Position numbers and translations under genes: made by a program. Below, in pieces: positions 1-18,597 of a DNA stretch of 64,000 nucleotides. The stretch spans positions 2,236,987-2,300,986 of the forward strand of contig NZ_CP101823.1 in NCBI RefSeq assembly GCF_024498175.1, given 5' to 3'. The first letter of the stretch is position 1; each line of letters begins with the position of its first letter. The notes under the pieces were generated by a model, which made no database searches, was not told where the DNA came from, and saw only the letters and a program-made list of their open reading frames with translations. The stretch comes from Haloplanus salinarum (GTDB lineage Archaea; Halobacteriota; Halobacteria; Halobacteriales; Haloferacaceae).

Positions 1-1
1 C

Positions 2-1465
2 GACTATGAGAGTATCACTTCGCTGCTCGACGACGACCCCGAGCGTGCTCACGACGACGAGGTCATAACAGCCCTCGCCATGTCGAAGGTGAACGGGACG
101 AAACTCTGGTCGCAGTTTGCACCAGAGATGTCGGAGTACGAGACCATTGACTACAACGCCTACCAGAAACTCGTTGCGTCGAGAGCGGACGAGCTCAAAC
201 AGGAGGAAGAAAGCGACACCACGTTCGAGGAAACGACACCGGACGCGCCACCCGAGCCAGAGAGCAACCCGCCAAATTGGGAGACTGTAGCAGAAGCCGC
301 TGAAGAGATGTTCGACGAACGGTCACGGCACCTCGCAGACGCATTTATGACCGTTCCAGGTCGCATGCTCTTCAGCAAGGTCACGGACTGTCCTATCGTA
401 ATAGGTGTCGGTGCGCCTTCATCCGGGAAGTCAACTATCGCGGAAACGTTCGGAGGAATCAACTTCGTCAACAGTTATGGGAAGGTGACACCGAACGCCT
501 GGATTAGCCATAACGCCGACGCCGAGAAGGGTGAGTATGACCTGTTGCCGCGTATCAAACAGCGGGTCATGCTGGCCACCGAAATTAGTACGTGGTTCAC
601 TGGCGACAACGTCGAGGAGTACATGCGCGTACTGGCCGCCGTCGCTGACGGGAACGGTGACAGCAAGACCACCGGTGCACATGGCACGACGCGCTACGAG
701 GCCGACTATGCCGGAGAGTATCGCTTCGGCCTCATCGGTGCAACCGTCTACCCGACCAAGCGAGCGTGGATAGAGATGGGACACGCCGGGTCACGATTCC
801 TGTTCCATCCGCTCCCCAAAGAGGACGACCTCGGAACGCTCGTCGAACAACTGAACGACGGGAACTATGCTGAGCGGAAGCAGGAACTGCAGGAGATGAT
901 TACGCAGTGGTGGCGAGGATTCTATCACCAGTACGACGGCGAAATCGCTGAAGACGAGCGTCCGTCACTCACCGACGAGGAGGATATGACGGTCGCATGT
1001 CTGGCCCGCATTATTTCCCGAGGTCGCGCAGTAGACTTCGGTGGCGACCACGGACAGAGTGGCGTCGACATGTCCGAACAAGAGAGCCGTGCCTTCTGGA
1101 TGCTGAAACGGATGCTCCAGATGCGGGCGCTGGCGTACGAACGCGACGAACTCACTCAGGCCGACATGGCGATGGCGGCACGAGTAACGTTCGCATCGAT
1201 TCCGCAGTGGCGCAAACCCATCGTCAAGATGCTGTGTAACCCGGACCATTCAGGTGGCTACAGAGCGGACGACGTTGAGAGTCACACAGGCTATGCCCGC
1301 AGTACGGCACTTGACCGGATGAAAGAGGCTGGCCGCATCGGCATCGCCAATTACCACGAAGAGGAAGGTGACAGCGGGAGGAACGCTGTCGTCACGCTTG
1401 CCGATAAAAAGCTCCAAGGAGTCTTCCAAGACGGCGACCGCGTCCCTTGGCCGTTCGAGGAATAG
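2..1465 (+). CDS. P-loop NTPase-like protein; probably 5'-partial, reading frame open from window edge, first ATG at 80
   Basis: ORF track 80..1465; in-frame codons with no stop back to base 2; Walker A-like GVGAPSSGKST; no confident family assignment. Confidence 0.5.
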   Translation, partial: DYESITSLLDDDPERAHDDEVITALAMSKVNGTKLWSQFAPEMSEYETIDYNAYQKLVASRADELKQEEESDTTFEETTPDAPPEPESNPPNWETVAEAAEEMFDERSRHLADAFMTVPGRMLFSKVTDCPIVIGVGAPSSGKSTIAETFGGINFVNSYGKVTPNAWISHNADAEKGEYDLLPRIKQRVMLATEISTWFTGDNVEEYMRVLAAVADGNGDSKTTGAHGTTRYEADYAGEYRFGLIGATVYPTKRAWIEMGHAGSRFLFHPLPKEDDLGTLVEQLNDGNYAERKQELQEMITQWWRGFYHQYDGEIAEDERPSLTDEEDMTVACLARIISRGRAVDFGGDHGQSGVDMSEQESRAFWMLKRMLQMRALAYERDELTQADMAMAARVTFASIPQWRKPIVKMLCNPDHSGGYRADDVESHTGYARSTALDRMKEAGRIGIANYHEEEGDSGRNAVVTLADKKLQGVFQDGDRVPWPFEE

Positions 1466-1620
1466 GAGCTTTTGCGATTTTCGTCGGACAGAGGGGACCC
1501 CCCTCCCCCCTGGTATAACCCCATTTGGGGTGTCAGTGTGTCCCCACCCACAGTAATTCTAAATCAAGCGGTAGGGGGAGGGAGGGGGTGGCCCTGTCCG
1601 TCGAGAACTGCAAAAGCCTC
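1466..1620. repeat. Nested inverted repeats: outer gcttttgc/gcaaaagc (1469-1476/1611-1618), inner imperfect ~20-nt G/C-tract pair (1491-1513/1571-1596), central mini-palindromes ccccatttgggg and ggggtgtcagtgtgtcccc
   Basis: read directly from sequence; lies immediately 3' of ORF1 stop (1463-1465) with T-rich run 1469-1490. Confidence 0.45.
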
Positions 1621-1861
1621 TGGGTAGGGTGGCTGAGTTCCAGTAGCGATTAGACCGGAGCGCACCTGCTATCAATACCGATAGGTAAACAGCTAATCAC
1701 AGGATAGAGCAGTAATTTCTGATTAAAGATATTTTATACTTCTTCCCACCCTACCACTAAACACGGGAACCCACAGAGCTACTGCTACCGGATTCGGTCC
1801 GGAGCAGAAACCGGTGCTTGGGACACCGGTCCGTGGGCTTCCCGATGGAGGCGAGAAGCCA

Positions 1862-2095
1862 ATGGAATCAACGAACTCGATAGAGGAATCACTGTCGAAC
1901 AGACACCCCGACGCCGAAACCGTCGGTAACCACCTCGTCATCGACAAGACGCAGTGGTGTCCAGGGCCGCATCCTGACCCCCACCGCCGACGAGAGGGCC
2001 AGACCGAGTACCTGGCGCGGTACCTGCGCTGTATCCAGTGTGGGGCCGAGGTACTGAGCGAAGGAGACCTCCCCGAGGAGTGTGATGCGCGATGA
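1862..2095 (+). CDS. small Cys-containing hypothetical protein (start uncertain; ORF 1814..2095)
   Basis: ORF track; CPGPH...CIQCGAE possible metal-binding; AT-rich promoter-like region 1690-1760 upstream. Confidence 0.25.
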   Translation: MESTNSIEESLSNRHPDAETVGNHLVIDKTQWCPGPHPDPHRRREGQTEYLARYLRCIQCGAEVLSEGDLPEECDAR

Positions 2096-2580
2096 AGTTG
2101 TTGGATGCTCAGGTCGACTGGCGCGAAGATGTCGGCAACGACCCTCGGCTGGAGGTGCTCGTCGACGAGATACCCGACCGGTCCGGCCTCCGGTTCGAGC
2201 ACGAGGATGTTCTCTGGGTCGCCATCGACAACGGATACGTGGAGTATTTCTCCTGGTCTGGTGACGGCAACGATGGTGGCTACAGCGGTCGGTCGTTCGA
2301 GATTACTACCGTCGACGGCGAGCAGGTCACGCTCAAAGGGCCGTGGAGTTCCCGTGCCGGATGCGTGAACAAGCGGAGCTTCGGGCCGGTCGTCGATGTG
2401 CGGATGGCGACCGACCCCGACGTGCTCGAACGGGGCTACACGTTCCGGACGGGTACCCTGACGCTCTCGGCGGTGAAGCAGGCCATCGACCTCACCGACG
2501 AGGATGCTCACCTGGAGCGCGTCATCAAGTTCGATTCGAACGAGCCCTACTGGCGTCCCGTTCGGGGAGGTGACGACTGA
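2092..2580 (+). CDS. hypothetical protein, 162 aa
   Basis: ORF track; ATGA overlap with upstream ORF; part of a co-directional overlapping gene array. Confidence 0.45.
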   Translation: MKLLDAQVDWREDVGNDPRLEVLVDEIPDRSGLRFEHEDVLWVAIDNGYVEYFSWSGDGNDGGYSGRSFEITTVDGEQVTLKGPWSSRAGCVNKRSFGPVVDVRMATDPDVLERGYTFRTGTLTLSAVKQAIDLTDEDAHLERVIKFDSNEPYWRPVRGGDD

Positions 2581-2747
2581 TGGCGACGTGTCGGGAACTC
2601 GGGTGCAACCGCGAGGCGACTCACACAGTCGTCGTCAACGCGCCAGGTCGTGGATACGCCGAAGACCCCTGCTGTACCGAGCACGCCGAGAAGGCACGCG
2701 GTCGGGTCTACGTTCGAGACGTGCGACAGCGAGGAGGTGAGGCCTGA
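2580..2747 (+). CDS. small Cys/His-rich putative zinc-binding protein (55 aa, below ORF-track cutoff)
   Basis: manual translation MATCRELGCNREATH...DPCCTEHAEKARG; TGATG overlap with preceding stop and ATGA-type overlap with next start. Confidence 0.35.
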   Translation: MATCRELGCNREATHTVVVNAPGRGYAEDPCCTEHAEKARGRVYVRDVRQRGGEA

Positions 2748-3121
2748 TGTCGTCGGTCCAACCCGACATCGAGCCACGCACCCTCCGGGCCGCCACCGAG
2801 CATATGACAGTCATCGAGGAAGCGCGGTCCCTGTTCTCTGTCACGACCCAGAGCGGCTCCGAGTACACCGTCGACCTCCGTGAGCCCGCGTGTACGTGCC
2901 CGGACTTCGAGTACCGAGACGGCGTCGAGGAGTGCAAGCACATCCGACGGGTTCGCATCGAGGTGGGCCAAGTCGACACCGATGCGCTCGAAACCCGAAT
3001 CGCGGAGACGGCTGACGACCTCGACGCGAACGCCGCCGACCTCGAACAGCAGGCCAAAGAACTCGCGGAGACCGCCGAGGAACTCCGTGATGCGCTGGAC
3101 CGGCTGGAGGAGGTGGCCTAA
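2747..3121 (+). CDS. SWIM-type zinc finger protein
   Basis: CTCPDFEYRDGVEECKHIRRV matches the CxC...CxH SWIM pattern; ORF track. Confidence 0.5.
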   Translation: MSSVQPDIEPRTLRAATEHMTVIEEARSLFSVTTQSGSEYTVDLREPACTCPDFEYRDGVEECKHIRRVRIEVGQVDTDALETRIAETADDLDANAADLEQQAKELAETAEELRDALDRLEEVA

Positions 3122-3522
3122 TGTCGCGCCAACCCCAGGGTTCGACCGGCGGAAACGCCCGTCTACGACCCTCGAACGAAGGGGAACAGTCGAGGGCCAC
3201 GACGGAACACGTCTACCACGGTCGGCGCGACCCGACTGCGCCGGTCGGTCAAGAGTGTACGGTCACCGTCGACGGCGAGCCGTTGGACCTGCGGTACGAC
3301 CTTCTGTCGGCGAGCCCGGCTGGATTCGAGTGGAGCTACGGTGGGAGCGGTCCCGCCCAACTCGCCATCGCGCTTCTGGCCCACGCCTTTGAGGACGAGT
3401 TCGCCGAGCGCCATTACCAGCGATTCAAGCGTGAGGTGGTATCGGAGCTTCCCGAGGAGAGGTGGATACTCCGGAAGCGGAATCTCGATGCGTGGCGTCG
3501 GGAGGTGGTCAGCGATGCTTGA
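3121..3522 (+). CDS. hypothetical protein, 133 aa
   Basis: ORF track; start ATG overlaps the TAA of the previous gene. Confidence 0.45.
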   Translation: MSRQPQGSTGGNARLRPSNEGEQSRATTEHVYHGRRDPTAPVGQECTVTVDGEPLDLRYDLLSASPAGFEWSYGGSGPAQLAIALLAHAFEDEFAERHYQRFKREVVSELPEERWILRKRNLDAWRREVVSDA

Positions 3523-3676
3523 GCGATACCTCCGACTGATGCGCTGGTGGGTGCGCCGCTGGTACGGCGTTGCTCGCTACCTCGGTCGACTTTCTGGTCA
3601 GGAGGAGTACGTCGAGCGAGCCATCGACGTGACGGAGAAGAACTTCGAGCAGATTCTGGAGGGTGACGACGGATGA
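3515..3676 (+). CDS. small Arg/Trp-rich hypothetical protein, 53 aa
   Basis: in-frame ATG at 3515 within ORF 3341..3676; overlaps previous stop by 8 nt. Confidence 0.3.
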   Translation: MLERYLRLMRWWVRRWYGVARYLGRLSGQEEYVERAIDVTEKNFEQILEGDDG

Positions 3677-3975
3677 CCCGTCCCGACCCTGCGGCGGCGA
3701 TGAACGGAGTCGGTACGGGCCACATCTGCGACCGATGCAACCGCCGGATACAGCACGGCGATAAAGCCGGAATGTATGTGACGTGGTACGACGAGGGGGG
3801 ATGGACCCCCCGTAGGATGTGGTGCCTCGACTGCTGTCCCAAAGAGGTCGACCCCGGTACTGAGGGCGCAGACGAAGCGATACTACTCGGGGTGTTCTTC
3901 GCACATCGGCTGGTGTCGGTAACCGTCAGAGACAGGAGTCTTCCGAATCAGGAAGTAAATAATGAGACGGGTTGA
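3673..3975 (+). CDS. Cys-containing hypothetical protein, 100 aa (CDRCNRR...CLDCC)
   Basis: ORF track; ATGA overlap with upstream gene. Confidence 0.4.
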   Translation: MTRPDPAAAMNGVGTGHICDRCNRRIQHGDKAGMYVTWYDEGGWTPRRMWCLDCCPKEVDPGTEGADEAILLGVFFAHRLVSVTVRDRSLPNQEVNNETG

Positions 3976-4192
3976 AACAGGCGACAGTGTTCGGGTCGAC
4001 ATCCCCGACCAGTCGGACCCGGACTACGAGCGGTTCCACGGGCGGTACGGGGAAGTCGTAGATGTGCTGGAAGACGACGTAGGTCGTGAGACGGGCGACC
4101 AGCGTGATTCGCACCTGTTCACCGTCGAGTTCGAGGATGGAACCACCCACGGCTTTCGGTGGCGAGACCTCCGTCCGGCACCAGAGGAGTAA
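3962..4192 (+). CDS. small acidic hypothetical protein, 76 aa
   Basis: ORF track; overlaps neighbours. Confidence 0.4.
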   Translation: MRRVETGDSVRVDIPDQSDPDYERFHGRYGEVVDVLEDDVGRETGDQRDSHLFTVEFEDGTTHGFRWRDLRPAPEE

Positions 4193-4197
4193 CATCC

Positions 4198-4350
4198 ATG
4201 CCGACAGCCCGGAAAGTCGAGGAGACGTGCCCGCGATGCGACGACGATAGCGACGTGTGGATGTTCGAGAAGCCCGAGGGGTCAGTCACGAAGGAGTGCT
4301 ACACCTGCGAGACGTGCGGGTGCGAGTGGTCTGAAATCATCGACTGCTAA
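4198..4350 (+). CDS. zinc-ribbon protein, ~50 aa
   Basis: CPRCDDD...CYTCETCGC four-Cys ribbon; internal ATG of ORF 4159..4350. Confidence 0.45.
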   Translation: MPTARKVEETCPRCDDDSDVWMFEKPEGSVTKECYTCETCGCEWSEIIDC

Positions 4351-4356
4351 TCTTTC

Positions 4357-4617
4357 TCACTCTCTGTCGAGTGCTTCGAGAAGCAGATTGCCGTTCTCAG
4401 TTAATCGGTAAAAGGTTCGTTGGCGACCTTCAGATTCCCGGTCAGCTACCTCAATCATGCCCTCGCTTTCTAATTCACCCAGCACGTCATAGATGTAGCT
4501 CTGAGTGTAGTTGATGTCGTTCTCTTTGTCGCTGGCAATTGCGTAACCAGTGACCGGCTCATTTTCGCGGATGTAGACGAGGACCTGTACCTTGCGCTCA
4601 TCAACCAGTCCCATCAC
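4357..4617 (-). CDS. winged-helix transcriptional regulator (PadR/ArsR-like)
   Basis: 86 aa; pattern VLVYIRENEPVTGYAIA...YIYDVLGELESEGMIE...RTFYRLTENG typical of wHTH regulators; convergent to the small-gene array. Confidence 0.6.
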   Translation of the reverse strand: MMGLVDERKVQVLVYIRENEPVTGYAIASDKENDINYTQSYIYDVLGELESEGMIEVADRESEGRQRTFYRLTENGNLLLEALDRE

Positions 4618-4851
4618 ACGAGAATACCCGAGGGGTCGAAATAGTCGATATAAGCAAAGTGATAGACCGGTCTAATAGTTAGACTTGTTCAGTAGTTTGA
4701 TATTGTATCCGTCGGATGGACGCCGTATGGAAGTGTGTCTCGTGGAGCAAAAGGACTTGAAACGAGTCCCCGAATCCAAACTGGACACAGAAGCGAACTC
4801 TGAACAGCGAGTTGGACGAACAGTTGGAGCGAAAATCGGGGTTACCCCATA

Positions 4852-5613
4852 ATGTCGGAGGATGGAGGAGTGTCTAATGACGAGTCAGGGGGGCCAGCTA
4901 TCCTGAAAACCATAGGTAAGATTGTATCTTGGGCGTTAGGTTTGTTCCTTCTTCTGTTGAGTCTGGGCGGATTTCAGGATTCAATCCCATTCGGATTCTC
5001 CTTGCTACTATTAGGTCTGTTTCTACTACCCCCGGTACGGAACAGATTCGGAAATCTAATCGACTCCAAGTTTTCCCGTTGGATAGTGAGTGGTATCCTT
5101 ATACTTGGATTTGTTACGATGTTGGTGACTGTCCCGCCGACTGAGGTCAGTGAAAATAATGATGCCTCTGAGGGGATTGAGACATCCTCACCTGGCACTT
5201 CCGCACGATGTTGGATTGTAAATCACCGGAGCGAGATTTCTGAAGCAAGTGAGCAACTGAATCAGGGTACTAATGCTCTGGAAGAGGGAGACGGGTCGAG
5301 GGCACTCATGCACTTAGAGAAGTCGTTCAATCAATATGAGACCCTGAATGAATCGGCACATGAGGCCCCTATTAGAAACGATACACGGGAACAACTGCTT
5401 GAAGGGTACTTTCATGCGGCATTTCAGGGTACAGCCGCTACGTATTCCGGTGTTTATGAGTTGCAAGTAAACGATGATGCTGATGCTGCAAACAGGATGG
5501 CTGAGCGACAAGAACGCCACTTCGAGACGGCGGCGCAGAGGCGGGAAGAGCTCAAGGAAAGCCTCGGGGTGAGTCCTTCGACAGATTTGACTGAAATTAG
5601 TGGGAATTGTTGA
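4852..5613 (+). CDS. membrane protein, N-terminal TM helices plus soluble domain; low GC
   Basis: ORF track; hydrophobic segments in first 90 aa; visibly lower GC than flanks. Confidence 0.5.
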   Translation: MSEDGGVSNDESGGPAILKTIGKIVSWALGLFLLLLSLGGFQDSIPFGFSLLLLGLFLLPPVRNRFGNLIDSKFSRWIVSGILILGFVTMLVTVPPTEVSENNDASEGIETSSPGTSARCWIVNHRSEISEASEQLNQGTNALEEGDGSRALMHLEKSFNQYETLNESAHEAPIRNDTREQLLEGYFHAAFQGTAATYSGVYELQVNDDADAANRMAERQERHFETAAQRREELKESLGVSPSTDLTEISGNC

Positions 5614-5701
5614 GTGGTTAAAAATACAAACTGGAGAGGACGGAGACGGGTGTGTCCATCATCTATTTGTAACTTCCCCAGCGGCATATAAGATACTTCG
5701 A

Positions 5702-8700
5702 ATGAGTCAGGCTACGCTCTCCGACCGACCCTACGTCAACGCGAATCTCTTCTCTGGTCACTACCTGGACGAGCGCGTACAAGAACGCGACGAGTGGGAC
5801 TGTGACGATGACGCCCGCGAAGCGATGGATGACCTCCGGACGCTCTATGAGTTGGAGGGCTCGCTGGTCGAGGGGTACGGCGAGGACGCGCTCATAGATA
5901 ACTGGATAGACGAGGTACTGGACGTACTCGGGTTTGGAACGCAAGAGGAAGTGACGCTCCCCAACGGCGGCGGCTTCGTCGACGAACTCCTCTTCGAGAC
6001 GCCGACCGCTCGCCGGGACGCCGCCGAGGTCTACCTCGGAACCGAAGATACGACCGACCTGTTCGAGCGGGGCGTCGGCATCGTCGAGGCCAAGCAGTGG
6101 GACGCCGCGTTCAACATCCAGTTCAGCGAGCAACGTCCCTACCGCAACGCCTCGCACCAGACCAAGCACTACCTGGAGAACACGCCGCCGAACATCCAGT
6201 GGGGCGTACTCACAAACGGACGGAAGTGGCGGCTCTACGGTACGAACGACTACGAGACGCAGACCTACTACGAGGTCGACCTCCCCGAACTACTCGAACG
6301 GGGCGACCTGGGGGCGTTCAAATACTTCTACGTCTTCTTCCGGCCCGACGCCTTCCACGAGTCCGGCGGCACGACGTTCCTCGACGAAGTGTGGTCCGAG
6401 AGCGAGACGGCGTCACAGGAACTCGGGGAGAACCTGCAAGATAACGTCTTCACCGCACTGCGCGTGCTCGGGCGCGGCTTCGTCGAGACCAACGACGACC
6501 TCGACATCGACCCCGACGACGAGGAGGCCTTGGACGAACTGAAAGAGCAATCGCTCGTCTTCCTCTATCGGCTGATGTTCGTCCTCTACGCTGAGGCACG
6601 CGGACTCATCCACCCGGAAGGTCAGTCGGCGCAGGACGAGTACGACCAGAACTTCAGCCTCGACGAACTCCGGCTGGACATCCACGACACCATCGGCGAG
6701 GTCGACGAGGGCTTCGAAGACGAGTTCAGCGACTACTCGACGACGATGTGGAGTCGGCTGGAGGACCTGTTCCGGCTCATCGACCAGGGCGAGGAAGACC
6801 TCGGCATCCCCCCGTACAACGGTGGCCTGTTCGACCACGAGGAACACGACTTCCTGACCGACCACGAGGTGAGCAACCAGTACCTCGCCGAGGTCATCTA
6901 CCGACTGTCGACCACGCAGAACGACGAGGGTCGGTACGTCCTCGCCGATTACGCCGACCTCGACACCCGCCACCTTGGGAGCGTCTACGAGGGCCTACTC
7001 GAACACCAGTTCCGCATCGCGCCCGAGCAGTACGCGGCGGTCGCGGAGGACGGTGGCCAGGTCTGGAAGCCCGCCACCGAAGTCAGCGTTGCCGACGCCG
7101 TCGAGACCGTCCCCGAGGGCGGGCTGTACGTCGTCAACGATGAGGGCGAACGCAAGGCCACGGGTGCCTACTACACGCCCGACTACGTGGTGACCTACAT
7201 CGTCGAGGAGACGGTCGGCCCGCTGGTCGAGGAGATACGTGAAGACCTGATAGACCAAGGGTTCGAGCCGGGCACACAGGAGTACATCGGGCCGTTCTTT
7301 CGGCGTGTGACCGACCTTCGGATTCTCGACCCTGCGATGGGGAGCGGTCACTTCCTGACAAAGGCTACTGGCTACCTGTCCGAGCAAGTGATGGCCGAGG
7401 TCCGCGAGGCTGAAGAGGAGTTCGGGGTGGCGTTCGACGAACAGCACATCCGGCGGGAAATCGCCAAAGAGTGCATCTACGGCGTCGACCTGAACGGGAT
7501 GGCCGTCGAACTGGCGAAGCTGTCGATGTGGCTGGAGACGCTGGCGGCCGACCGTCCGCTCGCCTTCCTCGACCACCACTTCAAGCAGGGTAATTCGCTG
7601 GTCGGGTCGGACATTGAGGATATCGAGGAACTGGAATCAGACGCGAGCAACGACGCTGATTCACAGGCGTCCTTGGCCGAGTTCGGCGCGACACGTGAGG
7701 GAACTATCGAGCGCCTGATGGACATTTACTCGGAGTTCCTCGCCATCGAGAACGAGACGGTCGAGGACGTGCGCGAGATGAAGCGCAAGTACGCCGAAAT
7801 CGAGCAGGACGAACTCCGTAAACGGCTCGTGACGATGGCGAACGTTCACACCGCCGAGCGATTCGGTCTTGATGTTCCCGGTGGTGCATACGAGCGAATG
7901 GCAAAGGCGCTGGAAGATGATGAGGAATGGGCGGGCGTTAAAAACACAGATTGGTTCGAAAGCGCACAGGCAACAGCTGGTGAGCAAGATTTCTTCCACT
8001 GGAAACTGGCCTTCCCCGAAGCCTACTATGATGAAGAGGGGTCATTGAGAAACGATGACGGATTTGACGCGGTAGTCGGAAACCCGCCGTATGTTAAGAT
8101 ACAAAACTTACCAGACACCGATAAAGAATATTACGGAAATGTCTATAATGTAGCCCGGGAACGCTATGACCTTTACAATTTATTCGTTGAAAGAGCGGAG
8201 GCCCTTTCTAATAATCGCGTTGGGTTGATTTTACCAAATAAATTCTTTGAGGCACGCGCGGGTTCGCCGCTCAGGCAACATCTTGAGGACATACAGAGTG
8301 TTGAAAAGATAGCTGATTTTAAACAAAACCAGGTGTTTGATGGGGCAACCACCTATACGTGTCTCCTGTTCTTATCGCAGTCTCATCAATCAACAATAAT
8401 TGACTATGGTGCAGTTTCAGACGACCCAGAAACCAATCTCACAGAAGTTGAGTGGGTAGAGATAGACTTGGATAATGAAGGAGAAAAGTGGAATTTAACT
8501 GGAGAAGAAGAAAAGAAGATACTCAACAAGATTGAAAGTACAGGAATTGGATTTGACGAAATCACCGACCAGATTCTGGTAGGGGTTCAGACCAGTGCTA
8601 ACGATGTTTTCGTCTTGGAAGAGTGTGAGTATGATGGTGATTATGTTGAAGGGTATTCATCAGCAGTAGGTGAGCGTGTCTCCGTTGAGACCAGTATTAC

Positions 8701-9868
8701 GAAACCGTTTGTAACGGATAGTGGGGTTTCTCGCTACACTCCACCGGAAACCGATTCTTGTCTCATCTATCCGTATCTTGATGATGGTACGATAATGCCA
8801 GAGAATGAGCTTGAGAATAGGTATCCCGAATGTTTTGACTACCTCTTGGACAACAAGGAGGACCTCAGCGAACGTGGTAGCGAGAATCAGGTATTCGAGA
8901 CGTGGTACGCTCATTGGTGTCCAAGACATCCTGCAAAGTTTGAACGGCTGAAAATAATGATTTCTCAGGTCGTCAAACAAGGGGAATCGACTTATGATTC
9001 GCAGGGGGATGTCTTCTTTTCCAGTACAGTCTATAGTCCAATCCTTGCGGAGACGTATAGGGATGTTGAGCTTGGATTATTAGGATTATTGAACTCTTCG
9101 CTCGTCTGGTACTATATCACTCAAACAGGAACTGTGCTACGAGGAGGTTACTACCGATACAAAACAGAATACTTAGAACCGGTTGGTATACCAGTTGACA
9201 GTTTTGACAGTAGTATCGAACAACATGTAGAGAATCTAATGGAATATACTGGTGAGCGTGTGAGAATAAACATGAATCTCACTGATTATCTTGGCAACTA
9301 CTCTGACGGACCGGACCTCACAACCGTTGGAAGATATAATCCGCCAGAGGGTGTGGGAGATTCGACGTTAGACGCTACTAACGAGGACTACGAAAATCTT
9401 CGTATCGGTGAAGTCGTCTGCGAAAGGAAGAATGAGACTACCGTCGTCATCCACGCTACGGCGCGCTACAAGCCCGACGACGAGGCCACCCACGAGACCG
9501 ACCAGTGGGGCTACACAGAGACCGAGCCGATGCCAGCAATACGACTGACTGACCTCTCAGAGACCGAGGCCGACCTCGTGGAGGCGTTCGTGCCGGTCGC
9601 CGTCGAGGAGGCCGGTGGGTTCGCAGGATTCCGTGAGACGGCGACGAAGACGAACTCGCTGGTCGACCGACTGGAGGCCATCACGCTCCCCGACCCCGAC
9701 GGCGTGGCCGACGACCTCGAACGGTACCGGGACGCCGTCGAGCGAGCGGAGGAACTCGACAAGAAAATTCAGCGTACCGATGACCTGATTGATGAAATCG
9801 TCTACGACCTCTACGGGCTGACTGACGAGGAAATCGAAATCGTCGAGGAAGCCATCGCGGATGACTGA
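5702..9868 (+). CDS. Type IIL (MmeI-family) restriction-modification enzyme: N-terminal PD-ExK nuclease, gamma-class N6-adenine methyltransferase, C-terminal specificity region
   Basis: FVDELLFE...GIVEAKQ (D..ExK as in MmeI), QWGVLTNGRKWRLY, PYNGGLFDHEEH, GAYYTPDYVV, DPAMGSGHFL (SAM motif I), VVGNPPYV (motif IV); start reset to ATG 5702 (MSQATLSDRPYVNANLF); TATA-like catataag ~15 nt upstream. Confidence 0.8.
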   Translation: MSQATLSDRPYVNANLFSGHYLDERVQERDEWDCDDDAREAMDDLRTLYELEGSLVEGYGEDALIDNWIDEVLDVLGFGTQEEVTLPNGGGFVDELLFETPTARRDAAEVYLGTEDTTDLFERGVGIVEAKQWDAAFNIQFSEQRPYRNASHQTKHYLENTPPNIQWGVLTNGRKWRLYGTNDYETQTYYEVDLPELLERGDLGAFKYFYVFFRPDAFHESGGTTFLDEVWSESETASQELGENLQDNVFTALRVLGRGFVETNDDLDIDPDDEEALDELKEQSLVFLYRLMFVLYAEARGLIHPEGQSAQDEYDQNFSLDELRLDIHDTIGEVDEGFEDEFSDYSTTMWSRLEDLFRLIDQGEEDLGIPPYNGGLFDHEEHDFLTDHEVSNQYLAEVIYRLSTTQNDEGRYVLADYADLDTRHLGSVYEGLLEHQFRIAPEQYAAVAEDGGQVWKPATEVSVADAVETVPEGGLYVVNDEGERKATGAYYTPDYVVTYIVEETVGPLVEEIREDLIDQGFEPGTQEYIGPFFRRVTDLRILDPAMGSGHFLTKATGYLSEQVMAEVREAEEEFGVAFDEQHIRREIAKECIYGVDLNGMAVELAKLSMWLETLAADRPLAFLDHHFKQGNSLVGSDIEDIEELESDASNDADSQASLAEFGATREGTIERLMDIYSEFLAIENETVEDVREMKRKYAEIEQDELRKRLVTMANVHTAERFGLDVPGGAYERMAKALEDDEEWAGVKNTDWFESAQATAGEQDFFHWKLAFPEAYYDEEGSLRNDDGFDAVVGNPPYVKIQNLPDTDKEYYGNVYNVARERYDLYNLFVERAEALSNNRVGLILPNKFFEARAGSPLRQHLEDIQSVEKIADFKQNQVFDGATTYTCLLFLSQSHQSTIIDYGAVSDDPETNLTEVEWVEIDLDNEGEKWNLTGEEEKKILNKIESTGIGFDEITDQILVGVQTSANDVFVLEECEYDGDYVEGYSSAVGERVSVETSITKPFVTDSGVSRYTPPETDSCLIYPYLDDGTIMPENELENRYPECFDYLLDNKEDLSERGSENQVFETWYAHWCPRHPAKFERLKIMISQVVKQGESTYDSQGDVFFSSTVYSPILAETYRDVELGLLGLLNSSLVWYYITQTGTVLRGGYYRYKTEYLEPVGIPVDSFDSSIEQHVENLMEYTGERVRINMNLTDYLGNYSDGPDLTTVGRYNPPEGVGDSTLDATNEDYENLRIGEVVCERKNETTVVIHATARYKPDDEATHETDQWGYTETEPMPAIRLTDLSETEADLVEAFVPVAVEEAGGFAGFRETATKTNSLVDRLEAITLPDPDGVADDLERYRDAVERAEELDKKIQRTDDLIDEIVYDLYGLTDEEIEIVEEAIADD

Positions 9869-10571
9869 GAGCCGACTCGACGAGTTCAACCCTGTCGCCG
9901 AGCGCGTTCGCCAACAGCTTCGCACGTTCCCGCTCAAGTTCAGGGAGTTGGGCGAGGGCGGAAAGCTCAGTCTCATTCTCACCGACGACGAGACCACGGC
10001 CCTCCCTGGACCCTACGTCGGCCAGCAACCGGAGGTATTCACCGAACAGTATCTGATTGAGCCGGTTCTGCACGGCTTGGGGTACACCAATCCTGCATCG
10101 ACCGAGTACGACGGGACCGGTCCGCATTTCGTTCGCAGACCGACGACGTTCCGACACGTCGAAAGCAAACGTCCGGATTATTTGCTGAAACAGGTCGACC
10201 CCACGCTGGTCTGTATCCTCGAAGCCAAGGCCGCGAACAAGGAGCAGAAGACGAGGCGAGCGGCGACCAGCGACATCCGCGAGTATATCGAAGTGAACGC
10301 CTTCTGCAAGTACCTTCGAGAGATGGCGCACGAGCAGATGGTAGCCATCGGCACAGATGGACTCCGGTGGACCCTGTGGCGGTCACACCTACACGAGGAC
10401 ACGCAGGGGCAAGTCTGTCGGGTCGACCTTACGGAGGTGCTTCGAGCCATATCGAGACGGCACGACGTAATCGAGGGACAGACGGACTGGAGTGCAAACG
10501 ATGTACGGAATCGAATCGAGGAGTTCGTCGACCACTTCGCGGCGGCTCGGCTTCCGGGTGTGATTGAGTAG
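9861..10571 (+). CDS. HSDR_N-like (type I R-subunit N-terminal) PD-(D/E)xK domain protein
   Basis: RPDYLLKQVDPTLVCILEAKAANKE matches the pDyvL...viEaK core; ATGA... start overlaps the stop of the RM gene (translational coupling). Confidence 0.5.
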   Translation: MTESRLDEFNPVAERVRQQLRTFPLKFRELGEGGKLSLILTDDETTALPGPYVGQQPEVFTEQYLIEPVLHGLGYTNPASTEYDGTGPHFVRRPTTFRHVESKRPDYLLKQVDPTLVCILEAKAANKEQKTRRAATSDIREYIEVNAFCKYLREMAHEQMVAIGTDGLRWTLWRSHLHEDTQGQVCRVDLTEVLRAISRRHDVIEGQTDWSANDVRNRIEEFVDHFAAARLPGVIE

Positions 10572-10630
10572 CGGCTGAACCGACCGCGCCGAGGATGGGC
10601 TGGCTACGGTGACAGCCTACGCTGTGAACC

Positions 10631-10695
10631 GTGTGTATGTACGTACGTGTGTTGGCGGTACGGAGTCGAGTATTTTGTTGTTTCTGAGAGGACTC
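10631..10695 (+). repeat. copy 1 of a ~60-nt intergenic element (gtgtgtatgtacg...ttggcggtacggagtcgagtattttgttgtttctgagaggactc)
   Basis: about 37/44 identity to copy at 13463-13519 in the same orientation; both ~100-140 nt upstream of + strand start codons. Confidence 0.5.
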
Positions 10696-10831
10696 TGCTA
10701 TCAACCCCGTCTGCTCGTTGTCCGGTGGTTGTCCGAATTGAAGAGTGGTACACGAGCAATAATCCTCTGGCCCCGTTAGCTTAGACTTGAGACTAAGTAC
10801 AGGATAAGTTTTAACACCCTGTGGATAGATA

Positions 10832-11299
10832 GTGGTAGATATGGCGCGAAGCATCAAGCTGGCCGACGAACTGTACCAAGAGCTCGGTCGCTACGGTAAC
10901 CGAGATGAATCGTGGAATGACGTGGTCGCTCGTGTGCTCGCTCACGTCAACGAGGAGGCGGCGCTTGAGGACCGAGACACCCGTGAAACGACGCATAGGG
11001 GAAAGTCGGAGAGTTCCGGAAAATCGGGCCTTGAGAAGTTACCGGATGGGACGGTCGTTCGCCATTCGTATTCCCGTGGCGATTACGGTGGACAGTCAGT
11101 CGAGGCGACCGTTGTGGGTGACCAACTTTCGGTCGAGGGGGATACCCAGGAAACACGAAGTCCAACTGGTGCCGCCAGGGTGGCTGATAAAAAGTTGCGT
11201 GGCGACGACGCACGGGGCGAAGGCTACAACGGCTGGACCTGGTGGACGTATCAGAACGAAAGAGGCGAATGGCGGCCAATTCAGGAGCTTTCGGAGTGA
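10832..11299 (+). CDS. RHH (ribbon-helix-helix) domain fused to a conserved Trp-rich C-terminal domain
   Basis: N-terminus RSIKLADELYQELGRYGN...WNDVVARVL fits the RHH beta-strand/helix pattern; C-terminus GWTWWTYQNERGEWRPIQEL paralogous to the next gene. Confidence 0.5.
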   Translation: MVDMARSIKLADELYQELGRYGNRDESWNDVVARVLAHVNEEAALEDRDTRETTHRGKSESSGKSGLEKLPDGTVVRHSYSRGDYGGQSVEATVVGDQLSVEGDTQETRSPTGAARVADKKLRGDDARGEGYNGWTWWTYQNERGEWRPIQELSE

Positions 11300-11304
11300 T
11301 ACCG

Positions 11305-11643
11305 ATGAAAGAAAAAATGCCGCCACATCTCAATTCGAAGCTCGCACAGTTAGACAACGGTACGACTCTCCGTCACGTTTACAGGCGTGGGGAGTACCGA
11401 GACGAGGAGGTGACCGCCCACGTCAAAGATGAGCGGATTAGCGTACCGGGTGATTCTGGCCCTGACGATTCAGAATTAACGACGCGAACCCCATCCGGTG
11501 CCGCCCGCGAGGCTGACCGATTCCACAGGGGAGCCGACCCTCGGGACGACCCCTACGGCTACAGCGGTTGGGACTGGTGGGAATACAAAAACGAAGACGA
11601 CGAATGGGTACCTATCAGAGAACTTCCCGACTGGAAGTCGTAG
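11305..11643 (+). CDS. paralog of the C-terminal Trp-rich domain of the preceding gene (no RHH)
   Basis: YRRGEY...SPTGAAREAD...GWDWWEYKNEDDEWVPIREL aligns with the upstream protein; start taken at MKEKMPP (internal ATG of ORF 11242..11643). Confidence 0.5.
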   Translation: MKEKMPPHLNSKLAQLDNGTTLRHVYRRGEYRDEEVTAHVKDERISVPGDSGPDDSELTTRTPSGAAREADRFHRGADPRDDPYGYSGWDWWEYKNEDDEWVPIRELPDWKS

Positions 11644-11878
11644 TGCGAAGTGAACGGCTGTAACTGCTTTCCCGTCATGGCTCGATAGAAGTCTCGAATC
11701 GACAGTAATCACCAACTCCGACGTATTAGATTCCTATACGTGATGGTTGGCGATTCTACTTTGGAAGACGCGTTATTGGGTACTACAATAACGGCTGTTC
11801 GAAAATAGACGTAGTCTATCAATTGGACAGCTACTACGTGGGGGAAACGACTAATCCGTATGCTTCCGGAGTACTGAT

Positions 11879-12592
11879 ATGACCAGACGCCAGGACCTCG
11901 ACCGATTCTACTCTCTGCTCGACGACCTGGAGGCGACAGTCGGTGGCAAGAGACGGCTTGGAAACTGTGACGGTCGAATGAACTGGCCCGACCGCGGCAT
12001 TTACTTCTTCTTTCACCCAGACGAAACCCGCGAGTCCAGTGACCAGCTACGAGTAACTCGTATCGGTACCCATGCGGTCTCGGAAGGAAGCAGTACGTCG
12101 CTCTGGGACCGGCTACGAACGCATCGAGGGGCACAACGCGGTACCTACGAAGGCGGCGGCAACCACCGCGGCTCCGTCTTCAGGAAGCGCGTCGGGGAGG
12201 CCCTCATCGAGAAGGATAGCCTCGAAGAGCAGTATCCTGAGTGGGGCGTCGGCTCAAGTGCTGGACGGGAGTTGCGGTTAGATGAACTGGAGATGGAGCG
12301 ACGGGTGAGCGAGTACGTCCGCGATTTACCGTATCTCTGGGTCGACATCGACGACGAACCGAGTCCGAACAGCGACCGCGCCTACATCGAGCGAAACGCG
12401 ATTGCGCTGGTGAGCAACTACGGCAAGGAATCTATCGACTCCCGCCGCGAGGAATGGCTCGGGCACTACAGTCCGGTCACGGACATCGAGCAGTCCGGTC
12501 TGTGGAACATCAACCATGTCGGGGAAGATTACCAACCCGACTTCTTGGAGACCTTGGAGGGCTACACCGACCGGATGCCGGGATTTGATTAA
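11879..12592 (+). CDS. hypothetical protein, possible GIY-YIG-like nuclease fold
   Basis: GIYFFFHPDE...LRVTRIGTH...R...H...E spacing resembles GIY-(10-15)-YIG-R-H-E; weak assignment. Confidence 0.4.
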   Translation: MTRRQDLDRFYSLLDDLEATVGGKRRLGNCDGRMNWPDRGIYFFFHPDETRESSDQLRVTRIGTHAVSEGSSTSLWDRLRTHRGAQRGTYEGGGNHRGSVFRKRVGEALIEKDSLEEQYPEWGVGSSAGRELRLDELEMERRVSEYVRDLPYLWVDIDDEPSPNSDRAYIERNAIALVSNYGKESIDSRREEWLGHYSPVTDIEQSGLWNINHVGEDYQPDFLETLEGYTDRMPGFD

Positions 12593-13014
12593 ATCCGTTC
12601 GTTGTACCACGCCAGCGTCTTCCCATACTGAAGCCCGTCGGTCGGCGTCTCGACCTGTACCGGCGTCTCTTCGAGGAGCGGGAGTAGCTCATCGTAATAG
12701 TCGCGGCCAGCGTGGAAGACCAGCGTGTTACCCGAGGTGAGTAGCCCTTCCTCTCGTAGCTGGTCGTAGACCGTTTGGGTCCACTCGCGTTTCCTGTCGA
12801 CGGACGCCCCGCTCAGCGTCTCGTCGTAAGGTTCGATAGGTGGGCCATCTGGGTCGAGCAGGTGGTGCTTTGCGGAGAGGATGTACCACGCATCGTGATT
12901 CGCCTCGACGTACTCGCGGGCCTTCCTGAAGAACGCGGACTCCATGTAGAGGTCGGCGGGCTTCGCGGCCTGCTCACGCTTGCTCTTGGTACAGCTTACA
13001 AGCCCAATCTCCAT
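12589..13014 (-). CDS. conserved hypothetical protein (MEIGLVSCTKSKR...DAWYILSAKHHLL family)
   Basis: ORF track; convergent and 4-nt overlapping with the previous gene. Confidence 0.5.
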   Translation of the reverse strand: MEIGLVSCTKSKREQAAKPADLYMESAFFRKAREYVEANHDAWYILSAKHHLLDPDGPPIEPYDETLSGASVDRKREWTQTVYDQLREEGLLTSGNTLVFHAGRDYYDELLPLLEETPVQVETPTDGLQYGKTLAWYNERI

Positions 13015-13027
13015 GACAAATGGACTC

Positions 13028-13408
13028 CTAGTCTTCCTCCGGTTCTGCGTGGGCTCTTGCCGCCTGACTCGGAGACAGTTTTGCTACAGCAACGTCCCCT
13101 TCTTTTTCAATGATATTTCCACCCACTTTTTCAGCCTCGTCGACATCAATAAAGTAGATGTCGCCCTCACCTTCATGCTTAACCGTTATTTCTGTTGAGG
13201 GGTCTTCTTCTTTTACTACTGAATATGCTGTAAGCGCAAGACCCGCAGTCCCAACGACTGCACTATAGATTGCTATCGCAGTTCCTACACCAAGCTCTTC
13301 GCCGCTACGTTCCTCCAGGTCAATATGCAGCTCATCCTCTACCCGGTCAATAATATACTCTTGCTCCTCTTCCACTTTCAATTCAATCTCATAATCTCTA
13401 TTTTCCAT
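13028..13408 (-). CDS. small acidic protein with one hydrophobic helix; low GC
   Basis: ORF track; AIAIYSAVVGTAGLALTAYSVV hydrophobic segment. Confidence 0.4.
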   Translation of the reverse strand: MENRDYEIELKVEEEQEYIIDRVEDELHIDLEERSGEELGVGTAIAIYSAVVGTAGLALTAYSVVKEEDPSTEITVKHEGEGDIYFIDVDEAEKVGGNIIEKEGDVAVAKLSPSQAARAHAEPEED

Positions 13409-13462
13409 AGTGACATGTTTAACAAGACTATTTTAAAAAGAACCGGGGCGGCTCCTGAGTGT

Positions 13463-13519
13463 GTATCTACGGGTCTTGGCGGTACGAAGTTGAGTATTCT
13501 ATTGCTTCTGGGAGGACTT
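13463..13519 (+). repeat. copy 2 of the ~60-nt intergenic element
   Basis: gtgtgtatctacgggtcttggcggtacgaagttgagtattctattgcttctgggaggactt; see copy 1. Confidence 0.5.
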
Positions 13520-13608
13520 CGTTCTCAGCAACTGAGTACGAGTCGGAAAATTGTTGCACCGGAATCCTATAGTCCAACAGTCACCAATAGATATCCAGGC
13601 TATCACAC

Positions 13609-14388
13609 ATGACAACCTCTAACCAGGCTATAGAAGAAGAGCTTGACAGGTTAGAAGAGGATGCCGAGGAAATTGAAACTCTTTATACCGATTTTTTCAA
13701 TAATATCCAAACAAGGGCAAGTGAAATAGGCGGTGGTGGATACTATTGGAATACCCCTTCGGAAGAATTGGAGCAGATTCAGCGTGAGGCACTGCAAAAA
13801 TACGAAGTGTGGTACAATACTGCGCTTCCGCTTGTTACAGATTACATTCCGAGCCGAAGGGATGATTTCGAACACCACTATCAAGAGTTCAAAAACCGCC
13901 TACGGTTAGATAAAAAGGCCCGAAGAGATACGCGCAAGGTTCTGAACGCTCAAAACAGTGATTTTGATTCCCAACGAAGTCTACTCCGTTCTATACCCTC
14001 GAAAATTCGTGTAGAGGAACTCAGAGTTCGAAAGCAAATCTCTCGTGATGTTTCGCAGACAGAACATGACAAGGCAAGAGACCTTTATGAGGAGGGTGAG
14101 ATTCGGGCCAGTGGGGTGATTGCCGGTGTTGCTCTGGAAAGATATCTCCTCATGCGTTGCGAAAACGCCGGAGTTGATATTGATTACAATTATGACGATG
14201 GTATTGATGCACTTGCGCAGAAATTATACGAAGGAAATGAAATCAACAAGAGTCCATACCAACATTTGAAACACCTTTCATCAATTCGTGCAGACTGTGC
14301 CCATGCAAATGAGGAAGACCCGGCTGAAAAGGATGTAAAGCGTCTATTGGAGGATACAGAGGACTACATCCGAGGGAGAAGGATATAA
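13609..14388 (+). CDS. hypothetical coiled-coil protein, low GC, Lys/Glu-rich
   Basis: ORF track; strongly AT-biased codon usage relative to the window. Confidence 0.45.
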   Translation: MTTSNQAIEEELDRLEEDAEEIETLYTDFFNNIQTRASEIGGGGYYWNTPSEELEQIQREALQKYEVWYNTALPLVTDYIPSRRDDFEHHYQEFKNRLRLDKKARRDTRKVLNAQNSDFDSQRSLLRSIPSKIRVEELRVRKQISRDVSQTEHDKARDLYEEGEIRASGVIAGVALERYLLMRCENAGVDIDYNYDDGIDALAQKLYEGNEINKSPYQHLKHLSSIRADCAHANEEDPAEKDVKRLLEDTEDYIRGRRI

Positions 14389-14418
14389 TTCACCGATAGC
14401 ATCAATCGAAACTCACTG

Positions 14419-14880
14419 ATGACCACCTACTGCTTCCGCGTGAAGTTCGAGTACGACCCGACAGAACTGTGGCGCGACATCGTAGTTGGCGCGGACCGCA
14501 CGCTCGACGAGTTCCAAACGGTGCTGAACCGTGCGGTCGGCCTCGACCAAGACCACCTCTGGTTCTTCGGCACTGACCAAGACTACTGGCAAAGCCCTGT
14601 GCAGTACAAACGGCCTGAGGAGTTGGCGCAAGCAGTCCCAACGATGGGCGACGAAGACGAGTACAGTGCCGCTGAGACGACAGTGGGCGAAATGATTCAG
14701 GAACTGAGGCTGCAAGAGCGTGACCGTATCTGCTACCTGTTCGACTACGGCGACGAGTGGCGGTTCTACGCCATCCTGAAGGAGGCCGACAACGATGGAC
14801 CCAGCGACAGCGAGCCGGAGGTAGTCAACGAGAAGGGCGACCCCGTCGACCAGTACTCTCCGCCGGGCGAACGACTGTGA
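14419..14880 (+). CDS. plasmid pRiA4b ORF-3-like family protein
   Basis: ICYLFDYGDEWRFYAILKE matches the YxYDFGDxWxH signature of this family. Confidence 0.6.
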   Translation: MTTYCFRVKFEYDPTELWRDIVVGADRTLDEFQTVLNRAVGLDQDHLWFFGTDQDYWQSPVQYKRPEELAQAVPTMGDEDEYSAAETTVGEMIQELRLQERDRICYLFDYGDEWRFYAILKEADNDGPSDSEPEVVNEKGDPVDQYSPPGERL

Positions 14881-15333
14881 CCGGTTTCTCGCCACGTCCC
14901 GGTAGGTGTCATGGTCACTACGTCCGAGGAGCGCTTGTGTATATTCTGTGTATGATTAAGTGTATTTCTCCGTCCAATCTACCATCACCGGAGGAAGGGC
15001 GGAAGCGCGTTTAGTGGTTGCGGAGCACCCCGCGAGTCCGACCCTCGACTCGCTCTGTCGTGTGACTGTCACCCACACATTTATGAATGATGGCTGACGA
15101 CTTCACCGTGGCCGCGGCCCACCTCCCCCCACTCACGACTGGCATCCCAGTTCGAACGCGACATCGTCGTCGTTCAGGGCCGCGGTTGCGTTTTTGACGT
15201 GTTCGACGTCCAGCCCCTTCCGGCGTTCGATTACGTCCGTCCCGGACGGCATCGACGGCGCCGTCGCTGTGTGGGTGAGTTCGATAAAAGAGACCGCGTC
15301 GGGTGACCGCTTTCGGCGGTCAGTCGTGATCAG

Positions 15334-18285: not shown

Positions 18286-18597
18286 TTTTTTGCGTTGTTG
18301 ATCTGCACCGCAGTGACAGTCCGGAGGTCGGTCCTCTTTCGTGCCGGTTCGTGATCTTGCCATCCGGGTGGACAGCGCGACCACTGGTAGGGGTACGGGC
18401 ACTTCTTTATCCAAGTCTGGTATATGTTTTGTGGTATTGTCGTATGTGTCAGACGTTCTCAGAGAAGGGCGAAATCGGGGACGGGACGGCGGTCGGCGCG
18501 GTCGTGATCACCGTTCGTGTTCGACGGACCCGAACCACGAACGGGAGCGCGACGGCGGACCGGACACCATTTATGTCGGGGGAGCGGAGGACGACGT

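Follow-up and report, generated by a model that had tools for sequence, protein, structure and literature searches.

A 64,000-nucleotide (nt) stretch of the Haloplanus salinarum chromosome (contig NZ_CP101823.1, positions 2,236,987 to 2,300,986; hereafter the window, from whose first letter all coordinates are counted) carries two overlapping genes on the + strand. The first (5702-9868) encodes a protein of 1388 amino acids (aa), labelled BIG, which from its sequence is, with high confidence, a single-chain Type IIG restriction-modification (RM) enzyme of a large Eco57I-like family that is abundant in haloarchaea. The second (9861-10571), hereafter the partner, encodes a free-standing PD-(D/E)xK nuclease-domain protein of 236 aa. 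The enzyme is an ordinary member of a known and abundant kind. The partner is an optional accessory that stands outside the basic enzyme, because only about 13% of the family enzymes carry it. To judge from its sequence, the partner belongs to a conserved but unannotated and undescribed small haloarchaeal family, and the role tentatively favoured for it is that of a trans-acting cleavage subunit of the enzyme.

The large Type IIG enzyme

The long open reading frame (ORF) that holds the enzyme spans 5600-9868. The ATG at 5702 is considered the true start because the residues M1-S-Q-A-T are conserved in all 26 aligned homologues. Both ORFs and all the enzyme motifs quoted in the first-pass annotation, which was made from the sequence alone, are real. 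The enzyme matches the Pfam models Eco57I (2.9e-35), N6_Mtase, MmeI_Mtase (9e-10, limited to positions 14-90 of the 259 in the profile) and TaqI_C (3e-6), and the PADLOC model REase_MTase_IIG (1e-71). The matches to MmeI_N (22.3 bits, cut-off 27), HSDR_N (20 bits) and MmeI_hel lie below the cut-offs of these models. The sub-threshold MmeI_N match aligns profile positions 26-138 to aa 92-198 of the enzyme and spans the residues D94, E129 and K131, the candidate counterparts of D70, E80 and K82 in MmeI.

The chain begins with an N-terminal PD-(D/E)xK nuclease domain (aa 1-215; 5702-6346, +). This domain contains FVDELLF (5975-5995) with D94 (codon 5981-5983), VEAKQ (6083-6097) with E129 (codon 6086-6088) and K131 (codon 6092-6094), and the motif QWGVLTNGRKWRLY (6197-6238). 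All of the 77 family ORFs compared keep D94, E129 and K131 unchanged, and the nuclease motif is therefore not a product of chance. Together with the Pfam and PADLOC matches, this invariance bears out the earlier description of a single-chain RM enzyme with an intact PD-ExK motif. A profile of the enzyme N-terminus retrieved nothing relevant from the PDB sequences. The nuclease domain is followed by a helical spacer (aa 216-470; 6347-7111, +) that is highly conserved in the family, with NGGLF at 6818-6832 and a weak match to Pfam MmeI_hel at aa 286-308.

The gamma-class N6-adenine methyltransferase (aa 471-900; 7112-8401, +) contains GAYYTPDYVV (7163-7192), DPAMGSGHFL (7328-7357) and NPPY (8081-8092). 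An insertion of about 120-150 aa separates motif I from NPPY, and the 171-position Pfam Eco57I profile is stretched over aa 590-879. Downstream lies a variable target-recognition domain of the TaqI_C type (aa 901-1180; 8402-9241, +; TaqI_C match at aa 1079-1160). The last part is a C-terminal domain (aa 1181-1388; 9242-9865, +) that is conserved family-wide and ends in DLYGLTDEEIEIVEE (9806-9850). In L004 and L016 (L-numbers designate the homologous loci compared with that of the window), this domain is what survives of the enzyme upstream of the partner. A nuclease motif, the methyltransferase motifs I and IV and a recognition domain are found on one chain, which is the organisation of a Type IIG enzyme. 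In such an enzyme, the variable TaqI_C-type domain would read an asymmetric site and the N-terminal PD-(D/E)xK domain would cut unmarked DNA nearby. The gamma-class methyltransferase would mark the host DNA, probably on one strand only, because no companion methylase was found in the island in which the genes lie.

Homologues of the enzyme form more than 1400 clusters. Among the 120 best listed, the identity is about 50-90% and the length mostly 1290-1480 aa, and the family members are labelled by NCBI as 'Eco57I restriction-modification methylase domain-containing protein'. A length of about 1400 aa is usual for the family, although a few shorter entries occur among the closest listed members. 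The first-pass annotation had presented the enzyme as some 470 aa longer than MmeI; the figure is right (the 5hr4 chain has 919 aa), but the length is no peculiarity, since 1290-1480 aa is usual in the family. Surveys have noted more than one Type IIG gene in each haloarchaeal genome (PMC10609329).

The assignment to the MmeI family, also proposed at that stage, does not hold. Membership of this family has been defined by E < 1e-20 to MmeI together with similarity over the whole length, including the recognition domain (Morgan et al. 2009, PMC2731913). The profile of 26 members of the window family matches the MmeI chain 5hr4_C at E 0.056 (14 bits), in a region confined to the methyltransferase motifs. 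All 26 members have a recognition domain of the TaqI_C type and MmeI_TRD is found in 1 of 26; membership was rejected for these reasons. MmeI_N is matched at E < 1e-3 by 20 of the 26. Among the other solved structures, the same profile matches CamA (3e-49), BseCI (3e-39), BrxX (4e-15), TaqI (2e-10), BpuSI (4e-8) and DrdV (7lo5; 4.5e-4), and neither MmeI nor DrdV was found by a single-sequence search with the enzyme.

The enzyme resembles MmeI and DrdV in its domain order, in the NGGLF and T-N-G..W motifs, in the MmeI_Mtase match and in the sub-threshold MmeI_N match. It shares their architecture and probably their lone-strand logic as well, the latter because no companion methylase was found in the island. 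On the other hand, the similarity to MmeI outside the methyltransferase motifs is negligible, and the spacing from D to ExK is 34 residues in the window enzyme and 9 in MmeI. Compared with BpuSI (878 aa), the enzyme is about 500 aa longer and has the long methyltransferase insertion and the conserved C-terminal domain of about 200 aa. It also differs from the BpuSI/Eco57I type in being haloarchaeal and very acidic and in the free nuclease-domain gene attached to it. Eco57I has a companion methylase, whereas none was found in the island of the window enzyme.

Across the family the first ~800 aa and the last ~200 aa are conserved and aa 900-1180 vary freely. The recognition domains are 17-35% identical between loci whose remaining enzyme parts are 60-94% identical. 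As read from these alignments, conserved ends around a variable segment are the signature of recognition-domain swapping. The enzyme genes are also mosaic. In L005 and L071 the stretch that begins with the recognition domain and takes in the partner is the same, but the nuclease domains share only 71% identity. Mosaics of this kind (L005, L065, L071) indicate that recombination within the gene is frequent. In six metagenomic loci (L029, L030, L045, L081, L082, L084), the enzyme is directly followed by an ORF of about 184 aa that reads as similar to the TATA-box-binding protein. If this identity is correct, the Type IIG genes concerned may be carried by elements equipped with a transcription factor of their own.

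The partner and its linkage to the enzyme

The residues that characterize the partner are E58 (10032-10034), D106 (10176-10178) within RPDYLLK (10170-10190), E121 (10221-10223) and K123 (10227-10229) within ILEAKAAN (10215-10238), and the motif GTDGLRW (10350-10370). The core of the protein reads PD(105-106)-X14-E121-A-K123. The partner has no match among the Pfam, NCBIfam and PADLOC models, and its profile gives at best E 0.73 (HsdR, 3h1t) against the PDB sequences; for these reasons it is regarded as an undescribed family within the PD-(D/E)xK fold. The predicted fold is HsdR_N/MmeI_N-like and resembles the nuclease domains of DrdV, HsdR and BpuSI, with that of DrdV as the top structural match. 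This agrees with the second PD-(D/E)xK-like core that the first-pass annotation had recognised in the 236-aa protein. In a profile-profile comparison (hhalign), the partner aligns with the enzyme's own N-terminus at E 2e-4, with helix E/D, ExK and T(N/D)G..W in register. The partner differs from the HSDR_N and HSDR_N_2 proteins in that no Pfam model of either detects it, in its lack of a motor domain and in its named members, which are only haloarchaeal.

Homologues of the partner form 121 clusters at 90% identity, have a constant length and are haloarchaeal in every member named by organism. An exhaustive search with the partner profile in 1.84 billion representatives retrieved 89 proteins only. 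Some of these are Eco57I-type enzymes of 1092-1206 aa, and the full length of the partner aligns with their first ~200 aa; a protein of Salinibacter ruber is in one such cluster. The N-terminus of the Type IIG enzymes of the haloviruses HRTV-26 and Hardycor2 (1174 aa) matches the partner as well. The whole partner aligns with the N-termini of other Type IIG enzymes and it can therefore be described as a complete Type IIG nuclease module in the form of a separate protein. In gp38 of the Halorubrum virus HRTV-26 (L106, 4908-8432), the N-terminal domain is 25% identical over 83% of the partner. The N-terminal domain of these halovirus enzymes is closer to the partner than the window enzyme's own N-terminus is.

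The residues E58, D106, E121 and K123 and the motif GTDG..RW are invariant, and the catalytic residues are present in 20 of 20 loci, so the catalytic motif is not a chance one. The ratio of nonsynonymous to synonymous substitution rates (dN/dS) is mostly 0.03-0.07, which includes a pair of loci without a linked enzyme (0.07). These ratios and the invariant residues indicate that the partner is functional. With high confidence, it is predicted to be complete, catalytically intact and of the same structural class as the nuclease domain of the enzyme. Beyond the nuclease module itself, no domain for sensing or for reading DNA is recognisable in it. The calculated isoelectric point is about 5.7 for the partner and 4.2 for the enzyme's own nuclease domain, and this lower acidity would be compatible with direct DNA contact.

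The stop of the enzyme gene and the start of the partner gene overlap by the 8 nt ATGACTGA (9861-9868, +). Translational coupling had been proposed at the outset on the basis of an ATGA overlap; the overlap is indeed present, but it consists of these 8 nt. An 8-nt overlap is also found in L001, L002, L019, L024-26 and L078, and a 4-nt overlap in L005, L006, L009, L065, L071, L007, L013 and L099. A 4- or 8-nt overlap thus recurs in at least 15 independent loci, which argues against a chance arrangement. Enzyme and partner are, with high confidence, predicted to be co-transcribed and translationally coupled. About 100 nt past the partner stop, the T-rich stretch GAGTATTTTGTTGTTTCTGAG (10660-10700, +) is a possible archaeal terminator of the bicistronic unit.

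The linkage was surveyed from both sides, in 24 genome or plasmid loci of the partner and in about 55 metagenomic loci of the enzyme with at least 750 nt downstream. The co-occurrence check suggested in the first-pass annotation found the overlapping pair in 9 of the 24 partner loci and in about 7 of the 55 enzyme loci. In the nine (L001, L002, L003, L005, L006, L007, L009, L013, L099), the enzyme lies directly upstream with a 4- or 8-nt overlap, although the enzyme gene has a frameshift in L006 and has lost part of its N-terminal end in L013. Four partner loci contain enzyme remnants or a nearby copy (L004, L016, L014, L105), and two hold distant homologues (30% identical) in other contexts. 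The gene arrangement recalls that of heterodimeric restriction enzymes in its adjacent, probably co-expressed genes for a large recognising and a small nuclease protein, but the two do not occur together obligatorily. The pairing had been called unusual; it is so in that only ~13% of the family enzymes have the partner, which stands beside the basic enzyme as an accessory.

Partner clades track enzyme clades and the two are congruent. The recognition domains do not follow the same course. In L005 and L065 the partners are 98% identical while the recognition domains are 25% identical, and in the window, L001 and L002 partners of 82-84% identity stand beside recognition domains of 21-25%. Consequently, the early suggestion of a specificity adjunct had to be abandoned.

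Other nucleases occur behind family enzymes. In L078 a free-standing HsdR_N-like gene of 237 aa (5443-6156) directly follows the enzyme with an 8-nt overlap, and in L105, a Halobaculum plasmid, a gene of 363 aa (3248-4339; HSDR_N_2, 1.4e-10) follows after a gap of 93 nt. These two genes are unrelated to each other and to the partner. The slot behind the enzyme therefore seems, from these gene orders, to be filled repeatedly by HsdR_N-like nucleases.

The surroundings of the partner also vary. A solitary partner adjoins a BREX-1 cluster (BrxE/A/B/C and PglX) in Halobacterium salinarum (L102, 658-1404), and another adjoins a helicase and a DUF262 (GmrSD-like) gene on a Haloarcula halophila plasmid (L103). 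In L005 a CBASS cyclase and an E1-E2/JAB gene come after the partner (11261-14730). In L008 and L010, the ORFs that precede the solitary partner were set aside as likely antisense artefacts, on account of their composition and of conserved overlapping ORFs on the opposite strand.

Possible roles of the partner

The reading favoured here, with a confidence short of even, is that the partner may be an optional trans-acting cleavage subunit of the enzyme. It would bind to the conserved portion of the enzyme on the DNA, add a second nuclease domain in trans and cleave the second strand. The cleavage would then depend less on a second occupied site. Since most family enzymes lack it, the partner would be an optional booster, with no sequence specificity of its own, and not a core subunit. 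Related arrangements are known. The small subunit of BspD6I provides the second active site for a large nicking subunit. BsrDI and BtsI are likewise heterodimeric, with a small subunit that cuts alongside the large nicking subunit (PMC1950550). According to a cryo-EM preprint, DrdV breaks both strands of a bound DNA through paired nuclease domains that come from other enzyme molecules (10.1101/2021.01.06.425610), and it is for this reason that MmeI-type enzymes need two bound sites (PMC2731913). MmeI and DrdV are homo-oligomers without a separate nuclease protein. In BspD6I, BtsI and BsrDI the small subunit is indispensable and the large one lacks a methyltransferase, whereas the window partner is optional (~13% of loci) and the large protein is an RM fusion. 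Literature searches turned up no account of a Type IIG enzyme that has its partner nuclease domain on a separate protein.

The lack of specificity in the partner, its tie to one enzyme family and the other HsdR_N-like lineages in the same slot lean, if tentatively, towards a cleavage subunit. It is possible, though doubtful, that the pair would represent the first two-component Type IIG/IIL enzyme, in which a free nuclease domain is recruited by a DNA-bound RM fusion and the need for two sites and several enzyme molecules, a limit of MmeI/DrdV-type enzymes, is relieved, with at least three unrelated HsdR_N-like lineages in the same slot. The same module might also serve other nuclease-less methyltransferase-based systems, such as the BREX cluster that adjoins the partner in L102.

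Several observations weigh against a cleavage subunit. At least nine of the 24 partner loci (L008, L010, L011, L012, L015, L101, L102, L103, L104) have no enzyme within 10 kb. These solitary partners are under purifying selection and have intact catalytic residues, with BREX-1, a DUF262 protein plus helicase, or an OLD nuclease as neighbours. Genomes with a solitary partner include those of Halodesulfurarchaeum formicicum, Haloferax profundi, Halogeometricum limi and Halorubrum sodomense. On the enzyme side, six of the ~55 loci carry the partner and L078 has a divergent analogue with the same 8-nt overlap, which gives the ~13% mentioned above. The presence of the partner is scattered over the enzyme tree and differs even between very close enzyme relatives. 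L022 has the same island backbone as the window and no partner. With partner-less enzymes so common and the L022 backbone among them, it follows that the enzyme works without the partner. No enzyme position discriminates partner-linked from partner-less genes; three alignment columns gave a weak signal that is not meaningful, and none of them lies in the nuclease domain. The enzyme's own catalytic residues are intact with or without the partner. In addition, the AlphaFold model of the N-terminal 300 aa of the enzyme, made from a 10-sequence alignment, was unusable (pLDDT 39, pTM 0.37).

Much of this would be expected if the partner were an autonomous nuclease of the HsdR_N class with a defence or housekeeping function, for instance modification-dependent or structure-specific, that shares defence islands, and in many cases an operon, with Type IIG genes and does not cooperate with the enzyme physically. 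Such a nuclease, which we consider a possible though doubtful identity for the partner, would account for the enzyme-free loci with their intact catalytic residues and dN/dS of 0.07, for neighbours as varied as BREX-1, DUF262 plus helicase, OLD, CBASS and McrB-like ATPases, for the ~87% of family enzymes without a partner and for an enzyme in which no co-adaptation is visible. It fits poorly, however, with a 4- or 8-nt overlap with one enzyme family that is kept across partners only ~50% identical, with the congruent clades, with two other HsdR_N-like lineages that independently took the same position and with a protein in which no sensor or DNA-reading domain is recognised. A modulating function would reconcile the optional presence of the partner with a fold equal to that of the enzyme's pairing domain: the free domain would compete for the nuclease-nuclease interface and damp self-cleavage after replication or after the acquisition of a new specificity (restriction alleviation). 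The frequent recognition-domain swaps in the family, each with a transient risk of self-restriction, would give such damping a use. This modulation is nevertheless unlikely, as a pure blocker has no need of the invariant catalytic E, D, E and K and no precedent was found in the literature.

The remaining explanations are far less probable. With 236 aa, a PD-ExK core and a position next to a methyltransferase that is typical of Type IIP R genes, the partner could be mistaken for a conventional, sequence-specific Type II endonuclease that matches the methyltransferase of the enzyme, or for a matching specificity subunit. A site-specific nuclease could survive neither the discordance between closely similar partners and divergent recognition domains described above nor the absence of an adjacent methylase in some loci, and this very improbable explanation is effectively refuted. 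A decaying fragment of a broken Type IIG gene has a counterpart in HVO_A0006 of Haloferax volcanii, a 219-aa PD-X14-EAK protein that is homologous only to Type IIG N-terminal nuclease regions (PMC4389544). HVO_A0006 is rare, is flanked by transposases as one fragment of the split gene HVO_A0237, has MmeI-like relatives in bacteria and shows no phenotype in the methylome (PMC4389544, PMC5867850). The partner shares with it the free-standing form, the size of about 220 aa, the haloarchaeal origin and the D-X14-ExK spacing. On the other hand, the partner family is conserved in 121 clusters of constant length, is under purifying selection with dN/dS mostly 0.03-0.07, keeps invariant motifs and has a fixed gene position downstream of an intact enzyme that retains its own nuclease domain. 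Decay was rejected on these selection data and is very improbable.

The large protein itself might be thought a BREX (PglX) or DISARM (DrmMI) methyltransferase whose companion genes lie outside the window, since PADLOC reports DrmMI (3e-97) and PglX (2e-29), partial matches to NCBIfam BREX methyltransferase models exist and the island runs past the left end of the window. These matches cover only the shared methyltransferase core (aa 470-852 for DrmMI), and the NCBIfam models reach 101, 88 and 56 bits against cut-offs of 500, 400 and 900. The enzyme has an intact nuclease domain, and in haloarchaeal BREX the PglX is a separate gene, as in L102, where the one unlinked partner next to a BREX-1 cluster was found. 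No BrxC, PglZ or DrmA/B/C genes, and no helicase, DUF1998 or PLD genes, were detected among the 20 larger ORFs scanned in the window (in the island and further right) or among 16 neighbour genes in seven partner-bearing loci, and no other BREX or DISARM genes in either set. Both identities were rejected and are very improbable. The first-pass annotation, which had seen no brxC- or pglZ-like genes and had thought a PglX role less likely, is borne out on both counts by these scans.

Genomic surroundings and significance

The window has a haloarchaeal composition, with strongly acidic proteins and a guanine plus cytosine (GC) content of about 69%. Its first ~15000 nt form an island of 49-63% GC, compared with ~69% in the chromosome, in which mobile-element and defence-type genes are abundant. 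Positions 1-15000 are probably an integrated mobile or defence island that continues beyond the left end of the window; neither a tRNA nor an integrase was seen in it. The right-hand 40 kb of the window contain housekeeping genes, such as those for carbamoyl-phosphate synthase, succinate dehydrogenase, phosphoglycerate mutase and a chemotaxis transducer.

Upstream of the enzyme, the island encodes a P-loop protein (80-1465), a SWIM-finger protein (2747-3121) and a DUF6166 protein (3121-3522). The P-loop protein is 36% identical to the product of a gene that precedes the enzyme in L001. The 253-aa ORF at 4852-5613, upstream of the enzyme, is conserved in none of the related loci. Downstream of the partner lie two small tandem paralogous ORFs (10832-11299 and 11242-11643) with the C-terminal motif G-W-x-W-W...E-W-x-P-I and a sub-threshold match (17 bits) to Pfam RAMA (restriction-enzyme/adenine-methylase-associated). 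Both are kept downstream of a partner-less enzyme in L038. The gene at 11879-12592 (+) matches the PADLOC candidate defence protein PDC-M57B (6e-77) and is convergent, with a 4-nt overlap, with a DUF6884 gene at 12589-13014 (-; 2.9e-40); the same pair also adjoins the partner-less enzyme of L022. A PRiA4_ORF3 protein is encoded at 14419-14880. On the right, where the GC content of the island gives way to that of the chromosome, a gene at 15334-18414 (-) encodes a secreted or surface protein of 1026 aa with a PGF-CTERM archaeal sorting signal.

Single-chain Type IIG/IIL enzymes have one catalytic site per chain, and a double-strand break needs several DNA-bound molecules. This need for several molecules protects the host, yet it limits the restriction of foreign DNA with few sites. 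A coupled free nuclease module represents a modestly novel variant of the Type IIG organisation. If the partner were instead autonomous, it would stand for a new small family of defence-island nucleases. If the partner does act with the enzyme, the pair would be an experimentally tractable case in Haloferax or Halorubrum genetics, and a function would be assigned to a conserved unannotated haloarchaeal family and possibly to many of the orphan 'HsdR N-terminal domain' proteins in the databases. An optional trans-acting nuclease module would then be a new way of tuning the protection of the host against the restriction of foreign DNA.

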